DNA of 26,550 bases from Mollicutes bacterium (GTDB lineage Bacteria > Bacillota_I > Bacilli_A > RF39 > UBA660): contig JAAZHN010000008.1 in assembly GCA_012510695.1 (NCBI GenBank), positions 1 to 26,550 of the forward strand. Reading direction: 5' to 3'. Positions 2,684 through 10,801 of the stretch are shown here, one piece after another. The notes below the pieces were generated by a model. It did no database searches, had not been told where the DNA came from, and saw nothing but the letters and a program-made list of their open reading frames with translations. The translations under genes and the position numbers were made by a program. Position 1 is the first letter of the stretch. Each line of letters starts with the position of its first letter.

Positions 2684-2712
2684 ATTATAACAAATACTTT
2701 TTTTTATTTCAA
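2684..2712 (-). promoter_or_regulatory. Sigma-A type promoter for tRNA-Cys
   Basis: Minus strand TTGAAA-17 nt-TATAAT, with TG-n extension (TGTTATAAT), 9 nt upstream of the mature tRNA 5' end. Confidence 0.7.
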
Positions 2713-4299
2713 ATTAATTATGTATCTTATATTTCTAACAATTATTTCTAAGTTAATTTTATCAGAATATTTAATTGATGAATCAACTTCTAAAACTACT
2801 TTATCTTTTAACTTTTTAGAATTAATTAGTATTACTTTTGAATCATATTCATCACCGTTACTAATATATTTTACTTTTAAGAAATCTTGGAAAAAGTTAG
2901 CTTTATTAGTTAAGCCTCTAGCATAGTAACTAGATGTATCAATATCTAATTCATAGTCTAAAACTAATAATGTTGAGTTACCTAATCGTGATTTAGGAAT
3001 AATTATATCGACAAATGTTTCACAATCATTTTCAAAGTTACATTGCTCATACTCGAAGGTATAATTATCCTCAATTACATAATCATTTACAGTTAAGGTT
3101 GTATTCTTAAGCGTTGATTCATTTAATATAACTTCCGATCCATAGAATTTTGTATCTACATCTTTTATATCAGCAAAAAATGTTGGATTAAGTAAAACTT
3201 TTTGATATTTTCCATAAGTTTGTCTTGTTTTTTCATTATATTTATTACCACTTAGAATTTGTAATTTATAGACATCATCTTGTTTAAAATCATCAATTGT
3301 AAAAACAAATAGACGATTAACATTTGTATTAGGAAGCAAATCTTCTCCACTATATTGAATACCTAAATCAGTAAAGTAAGAATTGACAGTTTTTTCAGCT
3401 ACTATTGTTTTGGTTTTAGTCGCGACTGTTATCTCTTCAAAAATTATTTTCTCTGAACTTGCTGAGGTGTTTTTTAAATTTGCATTAACAACTAAATAAT
3501 ATTTTCCTTTGGAAATTTCACTGCCAGTTTTGGATAAATTAGTCACATATGAATCTGTAACTGAATATTGTAGAAAACCAACATTAAATATTTGATTTTG
3601 ACCATATTCTTTATCAGTTAATTCTTTTTTAAAGAAGATAAAAAATATTGCGACTAAGGTTCCGACAATGAATATGGTTACGATTATTGCAGTATTTTCC
3701 AAAAAGTAATAGCGCCATTCTCTACCATATCTTCTTAATTTAACAATATATTCTCGGTAATCAAAGCCTAATACGAATTCAAATTCTTCATTATCAGTTG
3801 TCGATACATCTAATTCAGCAAGATCTTTAGAAAAGTTAAATCTTTTAATATCAAAGCCTATCGATCTAACTAAACTGAAAATCAAGAAAAATATTTGGGG
3901 ATAATAAGCAATCCTTGCAAGATCATAATACATTCTTGAGGTTTGAATATTAACAACAGAAGTTTCAATAACATTATTAATTATATTATTACCAATAAAG
4001 ACAAAGATTAAAAATATAAAGTAATAAATCGTTCCAAAAATATAAAAGTTGCTTGGTTTCTTCTTGTTTTTCATTAGAAGATACATTGCAAAACTAAATA
4101 TTACATTAATCAAAATAGCTAAGTATACTATTATGCTTGTATTATTAAATATTGTTATTTTACCAGTATTAACTAATTCCCCTAATGTTGAAACTATAGG
4201 ATTGGTTGAAATTAAAACAAATAAAATAGCACCAAATGATAAGAAATTGATTAATCTAAATCTTTTTATTAAAAATGCGTATGGCTTTTTTAAAATCAC
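2704..4299 (-). CDS. Hypothetical multi-pass membrane protein (531 aa) with a large extracytoplasmic, possibly DUF4352/Ig-like region
   Basis: About 4-5 hydrophobic segments in the N-terminal 150 aa and another TM near aa 205-225, then a beta-rich domain (YYLVVNANLKNTS...DLLPNTNVNRLFVFTI). Start moved to GTG at 4299 because AGGAG lies 9 nt upstream; the track's TTG at 4308 abuts the SD. Confidence 0.8.
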   Translation of the reverse strand: MILKKPYAFLIKRFRLINFLSFGAILFVLISTNPIVSTLGELVNTGKITIFNNTSIIVYLAILINVIFSFAMYLLMKNKKKPSNFYIFGTIYYFIFLIFVFIGNNIINNVIETSVVNIQTSRMYYDLARIAYYPQIFFLIFSLVRSIGFDIKRFNFSKDLAELDVSTTDNEEFEFVLGFDYREYIVKLRRYGREWRYYFLENTAIIVTIFIVGTLVAIFFIFFKKELTDKEYGQNQIFNVGFLQYSVTDSYVTNLSKTGSEISKGKYYLVVNANLKNTSASSEKIIFEEITVATKTKTIVAEKTVNSYFTDLGIQYSGEDLLPNTNVNRLFVFTIDDFKQDDVYKLQILSGNKYNEKTRQTYGKYQKVLLNPTFFADIKDVDTKFYGSEVILNESTLKNTTLTVNDYVIEDNYTFEYEQCNFENDCETFVDIIIPKSRLGNSTLLVLDYELDIDTSSYYARGLTNKANFFQDFLKVKYISNGDEYDSKVILINSKKLKDKVVLEVDSSIKYSDKINLEIIVRNIRYIINLK

Positions 4300-4322
4300 A
4301 CTACCCAACTCCTATTATAAGT

Positions 4323-4331
4323 ATTATACCA
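4323..4331 (-). promoter_or_regulatory. Extended -10 promoter element
   Basis: Minus strand TGGTATAAT upstream of the AGGAG SD of the 531-aa gene. Confidence 0.5.
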
Positions 4332-4381
4332 CGAGCTTTAATTCATTTAACATATTAATAATTGTAATTTACACTTTGTTG

Positions 4382-5488
4382 TTATTTAACAAATATCTTA
4401 TTATCTGAATTAAATTTCCACTCATAATTTTTCATTATTTCTACTTCGCCATAATTTAAAGAATATTTATATAAAACATCTTCATGAACATAATATATAT
4501 AATCATTTCCTTTTTGAATAATTTTAGGACTATCTAAGTAACTTATTTGGATAAGATTATCAGTTAAATTGTCTTTAATAAATAAGTGATTATCTTTAAT
4601 TAAGTATTCATATCGAGTCTTTTCACTAAAGATAATTTCATTATTAACTAGTCGATTGATTGTTATGTCTTCCCATTTATCGTTATAGTTTTTACCCAGT
4701 CCATCGTCAGTAGAAATAATATTTATTTCTTTTTTTATTAGATCAATTTCATATTGGACTTTTTCTTTTTTATCTACTAAATACAATTTATCTCCAAAAT
4801 GACCATTAATGTAACTTTCATAACTTATTTCATATAGTATACCAATTTTTTTGCTCTCACCATTTCTCATATCTATAATAATTATTTCATTGAAATTATG
4901 ACTTAAATTGTAATTGGGTATAAAAAGATAATTATCAGTTTTATAAACTAAAGAGTTATCATATATATCTTTTTCAAATAAAGGTATTTTTTCTAACTTT
5001 TCCCTCGAAATAAAGTCTATACCTTTATAATTCCAGATTGCATAGTTTGAAGTATCACTTGTTAATATATTGTACTTATCTATCGTTGTATTTATATAAG
5101 TTTTACTAATATTATATTTTCCTGCAACAAATTGTTTGAACTTTTGGGTATCAATAAGTCTAAAATCAATCGTTTTTTGGCCCTGATAACAAAGGGGCAA
5201 TAATCTAACTTTTGCTACACTTATATCTATGCAGTAATAGTTATCCTCTACATATGTGTTAATTTTTTTTACTATATTACGAAAAGGTGAATATTTTTTA
5301 TCAAATGCATAGTTAAAAGATAAATTATTTTTATTAATTTGTATGTGGTATATTCCATCATATTTTTCACTCACATTGTAGTCATCAACTAAATATTTTT
5401 TTTGATAATTAGTTGGTTTATATAAAATATAGATGAAAATAATTATTATAATAATTAATATGATTAAAAGTGATTTGTTTTTTTTCAT
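4382..5488 (-). CDS. Hypothetical membrane-anchored protein (368 aa), beta-rich and possibly propeller-like
   Basis: Basic N-terminus plus hydrophobic anchor (MKKNKSLLIILIIIIIIFIYILY), SD GGGGTGA 3 nt before ATG, and repeated short beta-strand patterns in the C-terminal half. Confidence 0.8.
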   Translation of the reverse strand: MKKNKSLLIILIIIIIIFIYILYKPTNYQKKYLVDDYNVSEKYDGIYHIQINKNNLSFNYAFDKKYSPFRNIVKKINTYVEDNYYCIDISVAKVRLLPLCYQGQKTIDFRLIDTQKFKQFVAGKYNISKTYINTTIDKYNILTSDTSNYAIWNYKGIDFISREKLEKIPLFEKDIYDNSLVYKTDNYLFIPNYNLSHNFNEIIIIDMRNGESKKIGILYEISYESYINGHFGDKLYLVDKKEKVQYEIDLIKKEINIISTDDGLGKNYNDKWEDITINRLVNNEIIFSEKTRYEYLIKDNHLFIKDNLTDNLIQISYLDSPKIIQKGNDYIYYVHEDVLYKYSLNYGEVEIMKNYEWKFNSDNKIFVK

Positions 5489-5509
5489 AATTCACCCCAT
5501 AATATGAGC

Positions 5510-5959
5510 TTATGACTTTTTATTACCGTGACCGTACTTTTTCTTTTCTCTAATCATAAACGTGGTTATTTTTGTTTCTATTTCATCTAAAGATTTACGA
5601 TCAAGATTAGATAAATTAACTACTTCTTTTACTGTATCTATTTCTATTTTCCCCCAAATGATTCCCATTGCAACTTTTAAATCATTAAATAAATCAGGCG
5701 TTATTGAGTTGAGAAAATAACCCCATGTAACTCTTTTTGAACCAATTAAAAGCCTTTTATTAGTAACTACCACAACACATGTTTGAAAAATGTCTAAAGC
5801 TCGGTCGTTTTTTTGACCTGCACAGGCATATGTTACTTTCTCATCTGGGTTTAAGTGATCATCAATTACACGACAGTGTTTTTTTAATCTCCACCAGGTT
5901 AAAGTCATTGGATACTTTTTTTTGAATTCTTTTACTTTCTCATAAACTTCTGACTTCAT
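5510..5959 (-). CDS. Bacterial PH-domain protein (bPH_3/YokE-like)
   Basis: DHLNPDEKVTYACAG...VVVVTNKRLLIG...GKIEIDT pattern typical of bacterial PH domains. SD GAGGT. Confidence 0.7.
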   Translation of the reverse strand: MKSEVYEKVKEFKKKYPMTLTWWRLKKHCRVIDDHLNPDEKVTYACAGQKNDRALDIFQTCVVVVTNKRLLIGSKRVTWGYFLNSITPDLFNDLKVAMGIIWGKIEIDTVKEVVNLSNLDRKSLDEIETKITTFMIREKKKYGHGNKKS

Positions 5960-5966
5960 ATATACC

Positions 5967-6827
5967 TCACTTGCTCTTCTCTATTTTATAGAACTCTAGG
6001 GCATCTGTTACTCTTTCTTCACTTAAAGCGCCTAAAATACAATCAATAGTTTTTCCATTATGTATTAGTAAAGTTAATGGAGTATTAAATCCTTTATCAA
6101 TAGTTGTATCAACTCCACTATTTGAACAAGTTGCATATCCATCATCATCTGAAATTGTCTTAGAACGTCCAGGAATTATATATTTTTGAGCCATAATTTC
6201 ATTATATTCACTTTGATCATAAAATTCATAATCAAAGTAGTAAACATCTAATTCATATGTTCTAGCTATTTTATTTAGTGTTGGTTTAAACATTTCACAA
6301 AACGAACAAGAAGTACGACCAAAAGTCACCATTAAGATTTCTTCTTTATTAGCTCTATCGATAAACTCCTTGGCATCAGTAGAAACTTTATAATTTATTT
6401 GTTCATAAGCATTATCAAAATATTGGTTATCTAATATTTCTAAATCGCTTGGTGAGTATAGTCCCCTTCTAACTTCAATTATTGTTTTATTATCAATAAA
6501 TGCAAAAGCATTACCTTTTAGTATCTGAGAATTTGCTTCCTCAATACTCTTTTTTTCTTTTTCAGTTAAATTGTCGATGTTAACATAATATAATTCTCTT
6601 CCTTTTTTGTTTTTCAAACTTGATAAATTTGCATATGATTGTTTACTTACCTTACTTTTTGCATAGTCAAAATAAATAATTGACTTAGATCCGCTTGTTA
6701 GTTTATCTTGAAATTCTTCATAAGTTATCGGTTTCAAAGCTTTAGCATTATTATCTATAATCATCGGTACGATAATAATTAGTAATGCGACTACACCGAT
6801 TATAATTTTTCTTACACCTGTTTTCAT
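5967..6827 (-). CDS. Membrane-anchored tandem thioredoxin-fold protein (second domain has CxxC)
   Basis: N-terminal TM, FGRTSCSFCEMF active-site motif, cis-Pro-like NTPLTL, and a first Trx-like domain with FDYAKSKVS in place of CxxC. SD AGGAGG. Confidence 0.8.
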   Translation of the reverse strand: MKTGVRKIIIGVVALLIIIVPMIIDNNAKALKPITYEEFQDKLTSGSKSIIYFDYAKSKVSKQSYANLSSLKNKKGRELYYVNIDNLTEKEKKSIEEANSQILKGNAFAFIDNKTIIEVRRGLYSPSDLEILDNQYFDNAYEQINYKVSTDAKEFIDRANKEEILMVTFGRTSCSFCEMFKPTLNKIARTYELDVYYFDYEFYDQSEYNEIMAQKYIIPGRSKTISDDDGYATCSNSGVDTTIDKGFNTPLTLLIHNGKTIDCILGALSEERVTDALEFYKIEKSK

Positions 6828-6835
6828 TTATCCTC

Positions 6836-8149
6836 CTATTGAGCACTTGTAACTTGTATTTTTGCTTTAAATGTTCTTCCCTGGTCTTCATTTTGCTCTG
6901 ACCCCGGGTCTTCTAAATAGAAAATTATTTTATAATTATGAGTTGTATTATTAATAACAACATAATCTACATTTAATGATCCTAAGATATTAGTATTAGA
7001 ATTTTTAGGAGCATTTGCTTTATTAACAATATATATTCCATTTAGGATTACATCATATTTAAAATTATTTGTAACAAAATTATTTTCTACATCTTCCCAA
7101 AATAATCTATAACCAATATCAACTGGATTTTCACTTGTTATTGAAAAGTTTTTTTCAATTAATTGATTTGGCAAGACTCCAACTTCATCAACTTCATTTC
7201 CAGTATCAAAATTAATTACATAAACTGGCGTTACCACACTTGATGATGAACTAGAAACGAGTGGTTTTGATGATGAACTTGATGATGAACTTGAACTACT
7301 TGATGATGAGCTTGAACTACTTGATGATGAACTCGATGATGAACTTGGTCTATCTGGTCTTTTTGAACTTGATGAGGAACTACTTGGCTGATCGGGTTCT
7401 TTTGAGGAACTTGGCGTATCTTCTTCACAATTATAATCACAAACTCCATCGCCATCTGTATCACAATATTTATCACAAACACCATCATTATCATAATCAC
7501 AATTGTAATCACAAATACCATCGTTGTTATTATCACAATTTATCTTACATTTATCATCACAGTTATAGTCGCAGACTCCATCGCCATCTGTATCACAGTA
7601 TTTATCACAAACACCATCATTATCATAATCACAATTATAGTCACAAATACCATCTTTATTATTATCGCAATTTAAAATGCATTTGCCTTTTTCATCTTTA
7701 GCGCAGTTTAAATCACATTTTCCATTTCCATCTAAATCGATATTTTCATCTGGCCAACCATCTCCATTAACATCACAGTTAATTTTACATTTTTTACCAG
7801 CCTCTGGTTGATTAATTAAATTTACATCAGGAACACCGTCTCCATCTAAATCAATATTAAATGTAGCTTTAGTTCCACTATAATGGGCAATATTTACATC
7901 AGGAATTCCATCGCCATCAATATCACAGTTAATATCACATTTTCCATCACCTGTTAAATCGATATTAATATCTGGGATTCCATCTCCATCTAAGTCGATA
8001 TTTAATTTCATCGTCTTTGTAACAAAAAACCTAGATGAAAAAGCTATAAAAAAGAACATGAACAAACTCATTATTATTAAAATAATAAGGAGTTTTTTTC
8101 TTTTATCTTCTTTTTCCTCGACTTGTTCAAATGTTTCTTTTTTTTCCAC
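6836..8149 (-). CDS. Membrane-anchored Cys/Asp-rich repeat protein (TSP3-like DxDxDG repeats, poly-Ser linker, TasA/camelysin-like C-terminal domain)
   Basis: GTG start with AGGAGA SD inside the eno 3' end. TM at aa ~20-42, 12-aa repeats at aa 51-241, Ser-rich aa ~246-305, and a C-terminal beta domain ending QNEDQGRTFKAKIQV. Confidence 0.85.
   Translation of the reverse strand: MEKKETFEQVEEKEDKRKKLLIILIIMSLFMFFFIAFSSRFFVTKTMKLNIDLDGDGIPDINIDLTGDGKCDINCDIDGDGIPDVNIAHYSGTKATFNIDLDGDGVPDVNLINQPEAGKKCKINCDVNGDGWPDENIDLDGNGKCDLNCAKDEKGKCILNCDNNKDGICDYNCDYDNDGVCDKYCDTDGDGVCDYNCDDKCKINCDNNNDGICDYNCDYDNDGVCDKYCDTDGDGVCDYNCEEDTPSSSKEPDQPSSSSSSSKRPDRPSSSSSSSSSSSSSSSSSSSSSSSSSSKPLVSSSSSSVVTPVYVINFDTGNEVDEVGVLPNQLIEKNFSITSENPVDIGYRLFWEDVENNFVTNNFKYDVILNGIYIVNKANAPKNSNTNILGSLNVDYVVINNTTHNYKIIFYLEDPGSEQNEDQGRTFKAKIQVTSAQ
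7268..7345 (-). repeat. 26-codon poly-serine tract made of TCA/AGT/AGC/TCG codons, including tandem 21-nt units
   Basis: Plus strand tga tga tga act tga tga tga act tga act act tga tga tga gct tga act act..., encoding S269-S294. Confidence 0.95.
7427..7669 (-). repeat. Intragenic tandem duplication with 132-bp (44-aa) period
   Basis: actccatcgccatctgtatcaca occurs at 7443 and 7575. The copies 7427-7537 and 7559-7669 differ at 10 of 111 nt. Confidence 0.95.
7427..7999 (-). repeat. Array of ~14 twelve-residue repeats, consensus [IC]-D-x-[DN]-x-D-G-x-[CP]-D-x-[NY]
   Basis: IDLDGDGIPDIN / IDLTGDGKCDIN / CDIDGDGIPDVN ... CDYDNDGVCDKY / CDTDGDGVCDYN. Confidence 0.9.
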
Positions 8150-9481: not shown

Positions 9482-10801
9482 ATGAAGATAGTTGAATTAA
9501 CAAAAGATCAATTTGAGAGTTTTACTAATACACACCCCTTAAGAAGCCATTATCAAACGTTTTATTATGGCCAATTATTGAGTGAGTATTATTTTGATTA
9601 TAATTTAATTGGTTATGTCGATCACAACAATAGTATTAAAGCAGCATCTTTAATTGTAACCAAAAGAATTACTTCAATTCATAAGTATGCTTATGCTCCC
9701 AAAGGAATATTGATAGATTATAATGATCCAGGATTAGTAAAAAGTTTTACTAGAGATTTGAAAAAATATTTAAAAAAGAAAAAGATATTTATGTTAAAAA
9801 TTAATCCCGATATTATTATTGGTGAAGCAAGAAAAGAAAATGGTTATAAAACTGTATATAATATCAATTTTGACATCATTAGTATGTTAAGTGGTTTTGG
9901 ATATCTTAAACTTAAAAATAACTTATATTTCGAGTCTCAATTTCCAAGATTTAATACCATTGTTCATTTAGATCAATATAGGGGTTTAAAAAATTTAGCT
10001 AAGAATGTTCGTAATAAGGTTAATAAATCTGAAAGAAGAGGTTTATCATTACAACAAGGAACAGTAGATGATTTAGAGAAATTTTATGAATTTGTGAAAG
10101 ATAAAAGAAGTAGAGGTATTGAATATTACCGAGACTATTATAATTTATTTAATAAAGAGAACCAGATTGATTTGTTTTTGATTAGAGTTGATTATGAAAA
10201 ATATTTAACTACAGCCCAAAAAAGATATAATGATGAATTATCTTTAAATGAAAGTTTAAATAATGAGATGCAAAATAACCCAAATGATAAACTTTTAGCA
10301 AGAAAAATGCAATCTGATCGTGACCTTGCTTCTTATAAAAACGATATTTTAAAAGCAAGTAAAAACATTCATGATGAGAATAGTATAGTTATTGCTGGAG
10401 CTTTAGTAATTAAATATTTTAACAGAGCTTATATCTTAATAAGCGGTTATGATCAAGAATTTAAATTTTTAAGTCCAAATTATTACCTACATTATAAAAT
10501 TATTGAGCATTATAAGAGCTTAAATTTTGAATTTGTAGATTTAAATGGGATGACTGGTGACTTTACCAAAGAGAATCCTTATTATGGCTTAAATAAGTTT
10601 AAATTAGGGTTTAATGATATAGTTTATGAATATATTGGTGAGTTTGACCTTGTTATTAGAAAAAGAGTTTATAATGATTTGAATAATAGTGCTACTTTAG
10701 CAAAAGAATTTAATAAACCATGGGTTAAAAAGGGAGATATTAACTCTGAAGGAATCCATATCTCAGAACAAAAAGAAAATCAAGAAATAGAAAAGTTTTA
10801 A
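9482..10801 (+). CDS. FemAB/MurM-family peptidoglycan interpeptide bridge aminoacyltransferase
   Basis: YAYAPKG, LKINP, a central coiled-coil insert, DLNG..G...GLNKFKLGF, and EYIGEFDL. Confidence 0.85.
   Translation: MKIVELTKDQFESFTNTHPLRSHYQTFYYGQLLSEYYFDYNLIGYVDHNNSIKAASLIVTKRITSIHKYAYAPKGILIDYNDPGLVKSFTRDLKKYLKKKKIFMLKINPDIIIGEARKENGYKTVYNINFDIISMLSGFGYLKLKNNLYFESQFPRFNTIVHLDQYRGLKNLAKNVRNKVNKSERRGLSLQQGTVDDLEKFYEFVKDKRSRGIEYYRDYYNLFNKENQIDLFLIRVDYEKYLTTAQKRYNDELSLNESLNNEMQNNPNDKLLARKMQSDRDLASYKNDILKASKNIHDENSIVIAGALVIKYFNRAYILISGYDQEFKFLSPNYYLHYKIIEHYKSLNFEFVDLNGMTGDFTKENPYYGLNKFKLGFNDIVYEYIGEFDLVIRKRVYNDLNNSATLAKEFNKPWVKKGDINSEGIHISEQKENQEIEKF

Follow-up and report, generated by a model that had tools for sequence, protein, structure and literature searches.

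Organization of the array gene and its protein

In this study, we analyzed a 26,550-nucleotide (nt) stretch of Mollicutes bacterium DNA (the window; assembly GCA_012510695.1, contig JAAZHN010000008.1, positions 1 to 26,550) and focused on a gene at 6836..8149 on the (-) strand. The gene encodes a 437-amino acid (aa) protein, designated P0001, whose central part is an array of 12-residue units carrying regularly spaced pairs of cysteine (Cys). Its open reading frame (ORF) starts with a GTG codon one base past the stop of the enolase gene (eno), and the N-terminus is kept in the orthologs P0002 and P0003. The protein begins with a short cytoplasmic region rich in Lys and Arg, with seven such residues ahead of the hydrophobic stretch, and a single predicted transmembrane helix of the N-in signal anchor type (approximately aa 19–40); both are encoded at 8015..8149 (-), and AlphaFold2 (AF2) models a helix at residues 8–45. 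The array of 16 units, delimited by sequence register and the AF2 model, occupies aa 48–243 (7421..8008, (-)) and contains 11 C-x3-C pairs. It is followed by a Ser-rich, low-complexity linker (aa 244–305; 7235..7420, (-)), which is predicted to be disordered, with a predicted local distance difference test (pLDDT) score below 50 for residues 245–301. The C-terminal domain (aa 306–437; 6839..7234, (-)) is modeled as a β-sandwich with a pLDDT of ~96 and is classed as TasA/camelysin-like from fold and profile matches.

Repeat units and cysteine pairs of P0001

The ORF translation confirmed all 22 Cys of the protein in 11 C-x3-C pairs, at residues 71/75, 121/125, 145/149, 157/161, 169/173, 181/185, 193/197, 201/205, 213/217, 225/229, and 237/241, and there is no Cys elsewhere in P0001. 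The region in which the original prediction had described these pairs, nt 7999–7427, corresponds exactly to residues 51–241. Its estimate of about 14 repeats was fair: counted in register, there are 16 units, comprising 12 regular 12-mers, three degenerate units (88–99, 112–125, and 150–161), and one 8-mer (198–205). The motif D-x-[DN]-x-[DN]-G occurs 11 times in exact form. Neighboring Cys are spaced four or eight residues apart, except for three longer gaps. C197 and C201 are likewise in an i/i+4 relation, at the truncated unit (CDYNCDDKCKINC), so that the sequence by itself does not specify which Cys pair there. None of 200,000 shuffles of residues 48–243 attained the 12 i/i+4 Cys spacings seen in P0001 (maximum, 10). 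As the array units duplicate each other, the shuffling treats them as more independent than they are and overstates significance; the family-wide counts given below are the stronger evidence.

Part of the Cys-rich region has arisen by a 132-nt (44-codon) tandem duplication at 7425..7674 (-), with 1.9 copies of 91% identity; the event doubled the Cys-rich units at the distal end, and each copy encodes four pairs. The two copies differ by 10 synonymous and five non-synonymous codon changes, and every Cys is kept. This pattern of codon differences points to selection on the copies, as judged from the sequences. Because the copies differ at codons with all Cys kept, an assembly error is an unlikely source of the duplication. 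Four public runs of anaerobic digester, biogas, and bioreactor metagenomes also supply contigs that tile the gene, and a 56-nt unitig common to both copies has approximately double depth in run X1 (20.7 vs 8–9), although run X1 may itself be the source sample and no single contig bridges both copies.

A large unnamed family with a conserved 12-residue unit

A word-seeded HMMER search, in which 8000 candidates were scored, identified 464 homologs at E ≤1e-3, all annotated as "hypothetical". The nearest relatives of P0001 share 48–54% identity across the full length. The homologous loci lie mostly in metagenome-assembled genomes labeled Bacilli, Erysipelotrichaceae, Tenericutes, or Firmicutes, and some cultured Clostridia gave weaker matches to the array part only. 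The family shares one order of parts: an optional cytoplasmic N-terminal domain, one transmembrane segment, the 12-mer array, a linker, and a C-terminal domain of ~135 aa. In longer homologs, an N-terminal domain of 100–130 aa without a signal peptide precedes the same transmembrane segment. The array itself is ordered; it opens with NIDxDGDGIPD, continues with an irregular NIDYKGNxKAxFNID hairpin and a nearly invariant CxxNC-DxNGDGWPD, and its later units finish as ...DGxCDxxCDTDGDGxCDxNC. The conserved columns of this unnamed family are present in the three alignments A1, A2, and A3. The nearly invariant pair corresponds to C121-x3-C125 of P0001 (CKINC ahead of DVNGDGWPD; 7775..7789, (-)), and both residues occupy nearly invariant columns in alignment A1. 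At the equivalent columns of alignment A3, C74 is nearly invariant and C78 is invariant.

We derived unit statistics from 1341 units in 121 family proteins; the members are related, and the counts do not represent independent events. The consensus is D1-[TLIV]-[DN]3-[GN]-D5-G6-[KIVW]-[P/C/A]8-D9-[LIYV]-N11-[I/C/L/V]12. Position 8 is mainly Pro (683), Cys (319), or Ala (250), and position 12 is mainly Ile (660), Cys (343), Leu (180), or Val (102). Cys8 is accompanied by Cys12 in 316 of the 319 units that have it, where 82 would be expected if the two positions were independent. The other frequent combinations at positions 8 and 12 are Pro with Ile (448), Ala with Ile (184), Pro with Leu (133), and Pro with Val (86). 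Pairs that stand isolated in the family are of the C-x3-C type in 494 cases and of the C-x7-C type in only four. These counts rule out a C-x7-C loop within the unit as the pairing unit, and they identify Cys8...Cys12 within one unit, not a loop around the Ca2+ site, as the functional unit. From the unit sequences, the near absence of mixed Cys pairs is hard to explain unless both Cys act together.

In total, 1387 of the 1631 Cys in family proteins (85%) sit in C-x3-C pairs. A protein has 2 to 23 pairs; three pairs are typical, and the 11 pairs of P0001 place it toward the upper end of the range. The pairs are concentrated toward the membrane-distal end, occurring in the last unit of 91 of 119 proteins and in the first unit of 11 of 119, and the last pair lies 150–170 residues from the C-terminus. 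The gradient from Cys-poor to Cys-rich units that had been noticed in P0001 is thus both real there and a family trait. The strict C-x3-C/12-mer register, which had been singled out as unusual, is likewise present in P0001, but it is not peculiar to this protein and is a property of the whole family. Within the genus of the window, orthologs have 6, 10, 11, and 15 pairs. The ortholog with 15 pairs is found in a sister genome (locus L111, G001:C3, 2529–3892), where a short run of N shifts the frame; this break, after which the TasA-like domain resumes in another frame, is an assembly gap and not a true truncation.

Structure models and the TasA-like C-terminal domain

The AF2 model of whole P0001 has a pLDDT of 78.7, with 88–93 in the array (88–95 in its first 100 residues) and the highest values in the C-terminal domain. 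Modeled alone, the array has a pLDDT of 78 and a pTM of 0.65, and it forms a helix-free, regular ladder with periodic β-bridges at unit positions 10 and 12. A search of the AlphaFold database (AFDB) and the ESM Atlas with the array model returned only unnamed members of its own family (TM-score 0.60–0.72).

The fold neighbors of the C-terminal domain in the AFDB include related exported proteins as well as entries named "Major biofilm matrix component TasA" and "SipW-cognate class signal peptide". The domain profile (alignment A2) matched 2843 cluster representatives, 1443 of them at E ≤1e-10, and many of the matched proteins carry Peptidase_M73 (PF12389, camelysin/TasA) above its cut-off over an overlapping stretch. 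The proteins with PF12389 found by the domain profile are small proteins, or carry it as the N-terminal domain of large ones. One family member, P0018, matches PF12389 directly (E 0.0017). Judged from these profile matches and from the fold model, the C-terminal domain is TasA/camelysin-like and probably homologous to TasA-like domains. A SipW-type signal peptide in the transmembrane segment of the family was considered, as many members have GATYA/S there, and was rejected, as the NCBIfam models give no support; the SipW-signal models had zero matches in P0001 and nine relatives, and the domain of P0001 sits behind the transmembrane segment, the array, and the linker.

The genome of the window (G000; 843 kb, 90% complete) contains 16 matches to the TasA-like domain, nine PF12389 matches above the cut-off, and four to five SipW-type (archaeal-type) signal peptidases. 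This complement represents a large outlay for a genome of such limited size. The Ca-loop array is found in only one of its genes. Several of the TasA-like proteins are 575–605 aa long and have SipW-type signal peptides. The TasA-like matches are on contigs C47, C87, C139, C156, C74, C1, C90, and others, and the SipW-type peptidases are on C161, C143, C42, and C119. Among 59 homologous loci, 15 have a small extra ORF with a TasA-like domain within a few kb.

The linker that joins the array to this domain spans ~60 residues in P0001 and includes a run of 26 Ser, with short tandem repeats recorded by TRF at the DNA level (7267–7347). It is far longer than the linkers of P0002 and P0003, and its length differs among the orthologs. 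It is probably prone to slippage and may be a glycosylation site.

Proposed function of the array protein

We propose that P0001 is a membrane-anchored, extracytoplasmic rod of Ca2+ loops that has optional Cys–Cys staples and carries a TasA-like head, and we assign this explanation a probability of roughly 0.55. P0001 would be a type-II (N-in) surface protein of an anaerobe with a small, low-GC genome. Each of the ~16 back-to-back 12-residue units would form a Ca2+-binding turn through Asp1, Asp/Asn3, Asp5, Gly6, and Asp9. The Dx[DN]xDG motif binds Ca2+ in a similar manner in at least twelve structural contexts (PMC3123361), and the unit sequences of the array fit this motif. The units would stack into a thin rod via a short β-bridge ladder, in which Asn11 and residues 10 and 12 build the contacts between units. 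Positions 8 and 12 would contact each other either as a hydrophobic pair (Pro/Ala with Ile/Leu/Val) or as a Cys–Cys pair, and the Cys version most likely staples the turn through a local i/i+4 disulfide, chiefly as a distal cap at the membrane-distal end. The rod and the disordered Ser-rich linker would hold the β-sandwich head off the membrane, where it probably docks onto, or nucleates, fibers of the SipW-dependent TasA-like proteins of the genome, in an anchoring role like that of TapA. TasA fibers assemble through donor-strand exchange (PMC9674648), and TapA is a cell-associated accessory protein that acts via strand complementation (PMC10151520).

The original prediction had suggested either a disulfide-stapled calcium-binding rod or a mixed array binding Ca and soft metals. 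The stapled rod is the best-supported reading, given the coupling of Cys8 with Cys12, the excess of isolated C-x3-C over C-x7-C, the location outside the membrane, and the AF2 ladder; its disulfides and Ca2+ sites are putative. The analysis established the register of the units, the coupling of Cys8 with Cys12, the conserved order of parts, a confident model, and the absence of a named family; from these sequences and models we infer Ca2+ binding, disulfide formation, rod geometry, and fiber anchoring. A more tentative extension is that the array is a new Ca2+-dependent mini-solenoid, with one Ca2+ loop and a three-residue β-rung per coil and a core that can switch between Pro+Ile and Cys–Cys, and that it serves small-genome anaerobes as a Ca- and redox-sensitive stalk anchoring TasA-like fibers to the membrane.

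Several observations weigh against the stapled rod with a TasA-like head, in addition to the relatedness of the counted family members. P0001 itself reaches no Pfam TasA model in a direct scan, and the window contains no TasA-like-domain or SipW gene besides P0001. Anaerobic digesters are the habitat of the organism. Neither DsbB nor VKOR turned up in its 90%-complete genome, which does encode a CcdA/DsbD-type thiol-disulfide transporter (C21:140–655, (-)); CcdA usually belongs to a reducing pathway, so the Cys pairs may stay reduced. Extracytoplasmic thiol chemistry in this organism may run through CcdA and thioredoxin-fold proteins. Finally, as described below, the thioredoxin-fold gene beside the array gene does not behave as a dedicated partner.

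Gene neighborhood and redox context

A membrane-anchored thioredoxin-fold protein with a CSFC motif is encoded 8 nt downstream of the array gene (5967..6827, (-)) and is considered here as context only. It belongs to a module at 2704–6827 (-) that also comprises genes for a bacterial PH-domain protein and for membrane proteins of 368 and 534 aa. Within the genus of the window, four genomes have the thioredoxin-fold gene next to the array gene. Of 80 homologous loci, the other 79 lack the module near the array gene. Two further genera of this taxonomic family possess the module but no array gene (L107 in G013, where the 368-aa protein is unmatched, and L108 in G016). The array gene stands between eno and the thioredoxin module in the window's genus only; since other genera have the module but no array, the gene looks inserted between eno and a pre-existing module. 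The thioredoxin-fold protein as a dedicated partner of the array was therefore rejected, as the adjacency is limited to one genus and the module lives without the array in G013 and G016. Its adjacency lends the stapled rod weak support.

Other large, very Cys-rich proteins with N-terminal hydrophobic segments are encoded at C96:7828–10491 (-) (887 aa, 45 Cys), C108:283–4707 (-) (38 Cys), and C38:2043–4514 (+) (29 Cys), and they lack the C-x3-C pattern. As these exported proteins are rich in Cys, the exported proteins of this anaerobe evidently do not avoid the residue. Cys exclusion was found in aerobic Firmicutes by Daniels et al. (PMC2823432), and this rule need not apply here.

On the other side of the array gene, the divergent neighbor of eno encodes a FemAB-family peptidyltransferase (9482–10801, (+)). 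The presence of this gene indicates a wall of peptidoglycan that contains an interpeptide bridge, and the stalk and linker may be needed for spanning such a wall. At two homologous loci (L081, that of P0013, and L085, that of P0039), the stalk gene is located directly before genes for a penicillin-binding protein with PASTA domains, MraY, and FtsW or after genes for FtsE, FtsX, and a PcsB-like M23 peptidase. For some family members, this context may point to a connection with the division or wall machinery.

Alternative roles of the cysteine pairs

The Cys pairs could lack any covalent or metal-binding role and simply fill a small hydrophobic pocket in a reduced setting, with the array acting as a Ca-loop or acidic spacer. 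The anaerobic habitat, the lack of a detected oxidase, the abundance of Cys in other exported proteins (such as the 887-aa protein with 45 Cys), and the fast drift of the pair number inside one genus (6, 10, 11, and 15) are all consistent with such a filler. However, a filler predicts mixed pairs such as Cys with Ile or Pro with Cys, and only three of the 319 units with Cys at position 8 lack Cys at position 12. Moreover, the pair 121/125 is invariant or nearly so across the family, and the duplication kept all Cys. We therefore regard a purely steric role as unlikely.

Alternatively, the Cys pairs could stay reduced and bind a soft metal (Zn, Fe, Ni, or Cu) through their thiols, which would make the protein a rod that binds or stores both Ca and soft metals. 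Cys always occur as pairs, and the habitat is anoxic, with CcdA present and DsbB/VKOR not found. The distal pairs of P0001 recur every 12 residues, so that neighbors could share a metal. This explanation is difficult to reconcile with the 494 isolated pairs, which cannot make a four-Cys site, or with pair numbers per protein that are often odd (e.g., 3, 7, and 11). The exchange of a pair for Pro/Ala and Ile/Leu/Val at equivalent positions of homologs is a structural substitution rather than one of ligands, and no known metal-site family matched P0001 in the Pfam and NCBIfam scans. The mixed array named in the original prediction consequently fits less well than the stapled rod: its pairs can be exchanged for hydrophobic ones, frequently occur singly, and vary from 2 to 23 per protein. 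We consider soft-metal binding improbable.

Relationship to known families and structures

The stapled rod was also weighed against known Ca2+-binding repeats. The array had been left unassigned to any named family, and this assessment holds: no family covering the array emerged when the whole protein, the array, and each array half were scanned against Pfam and NCBIfam, and the sequence and fold searches of the PDB likewise gave no match across it to a characterized family. The thrombospondin type-3 (TSP type-3) model TSP_3 (PF02412) had zero matches at E ≤10 for whole P0001, the array, the array halves, and five homologs. The bacterial model TSP3_bac (PF18884) stayed below its 25-bit cut-off, the best match (E 0.16, 12.3 bits) covering only profile positions 1–9 at aa 156–243. 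No dockerin, EF-hand, or Excalibur match was found in the scans of P0001, and a DUF6802 match was below its cut-off. Matches to ClfA/Sdr "MSCRAMM" models were dismissed as compositional, as they reflect Asp/Ser runs and score 24 bits against cut-offs near 1000. An EF-hand consists of two helices around a 12-residue loop with Glu at position 12; the array also departs from it in its helix-free model and in the I/C/L/V residues at position 12, besides the missing Pfam match. In the Cys-poor half (aa 48–160), FG-GAP_3 (33.5 bits; cut-off, 26.9) and FG-GAP (25 bits; cut-off, 22.1) were matched above their cut-offs.

Searches of PDB sequences with the single protein and with the array and head profiles gave no significant match and no thrombospondin or COMP; the top match of the array profile, which was non-significant, was the Ca-propeller protein CRTAC1. 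In the PDB, neither Foldseek (E ≤10) nor VIA-align (Z ≥2) returned any match to the array-only model; fold aligners serve irregular, loop-rich folds poorly, so this lack of a match is no proof of a new fold. A divergent form of TSP type-3 or bacterial TSP3 repeats, or of the FG-GAP "calcium blades" of a β-propeller, would account for the common Dx[DN]xDG core, the FG-GAP scores, and the CRTAC1 match, and TSP type-3 repeats likewise combine Ca2+ sites with disulfides (PMC2289535), but such an origin is very improbable because the FG-GAP matches span only profile positions 1–16 of 61 (the Ca loop and not the blade), a 12-residue period cannot build a blade of ~60 residues and none was modeled, and the TSP models and the PDB fold searches gave the negative results described above. 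The repeat type of the array is genuine and conserved, has neither a name nor a solved counterpart, and occurs in a widespread family; it is built from a well-known Ca-binding motif.

Implications and comparison with known systems

If the proposed model is true, the array represents a very small, modular, and metal-dependent rod of tunable length, whose units are gained and lost fast (6 to 15 pairs within one genus). Hydrophobic or covalent stapling at the same position would provide a clean natural experiment on disulfides that replace core contacts. The protein would also add a membrane-anchored component to the TasA-type fiber systems of uncultured, genome-reduced Bacillota from digesters and guts. 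The family bears on the question of whether structural disulfides are formed extracellularly in strict anaerobes that have neither DsbB nor VKOR.

Like the array, TSP type-3 (PF02412; PDB 1UX6) and bacterial TSP3 (PF18884) repeats are extracellular and consist of contiguous, Asp-rich Dx[DN]xDG Ca2+ loops with cysteines and without flanking helices. TSP type-3 repeats alternate 13- and 23-residue motifs, and their disulfides link successive repeats. The array differs in its uniform 12-residue period and local C-x3-C unit, and no profile hidden Markov model or fold match connects the two. TSP type-3 repeats contain many Ca2+ sites and isomerizing disulfides (PMC2289535, PMC3123361). The loop of the FG-GAP or "calcium blade" families (PF01839, PF13517), D-[LIV]-[DN]-G-D-G-x-x-D-[LIV], is nearly the same as the array unit, and the calcium blades of integrin-type β-propellers have been described (PMC3123361). 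In the array, however, the remainder of the blade is absent, units recur every 12 instead of ~60 residues, and no propeller is modeled.

Very narrow solenoids have precedents among antifreeze proteins, although these have an unrelated function and no sequence or fold match to the array. The Tenebrio molitor antifreeze protein (PDB 1EZG) has 12 residues and one disulfide per coil, with Cys at every sixth residue and no hydrophobic core, whereas the Cys of the array are at unit positions 8 and 12. The Marinomonas antifreeze protein is a Ca2+-bound β-helix in which a row of Ca2+ ions replaces the hydrophobic core.

P0001 resembles the TasA/TapA/SipW system of Bacillus subtilis (PF12389) in the β-sandwich fold of its head, in the profile link to proteins with SipW signals, and in a genome rich in such proteins and in SipW-type peptidases. 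Its likeness to TapA would be one of role. P0001 differs from the TasA system in architecture: the TasA-like domain of P0001 does not directly follow a SipW-type signal peptide but is placed at the C-terminus, behind a transmembrane anchor and a Ca-loop stalk.

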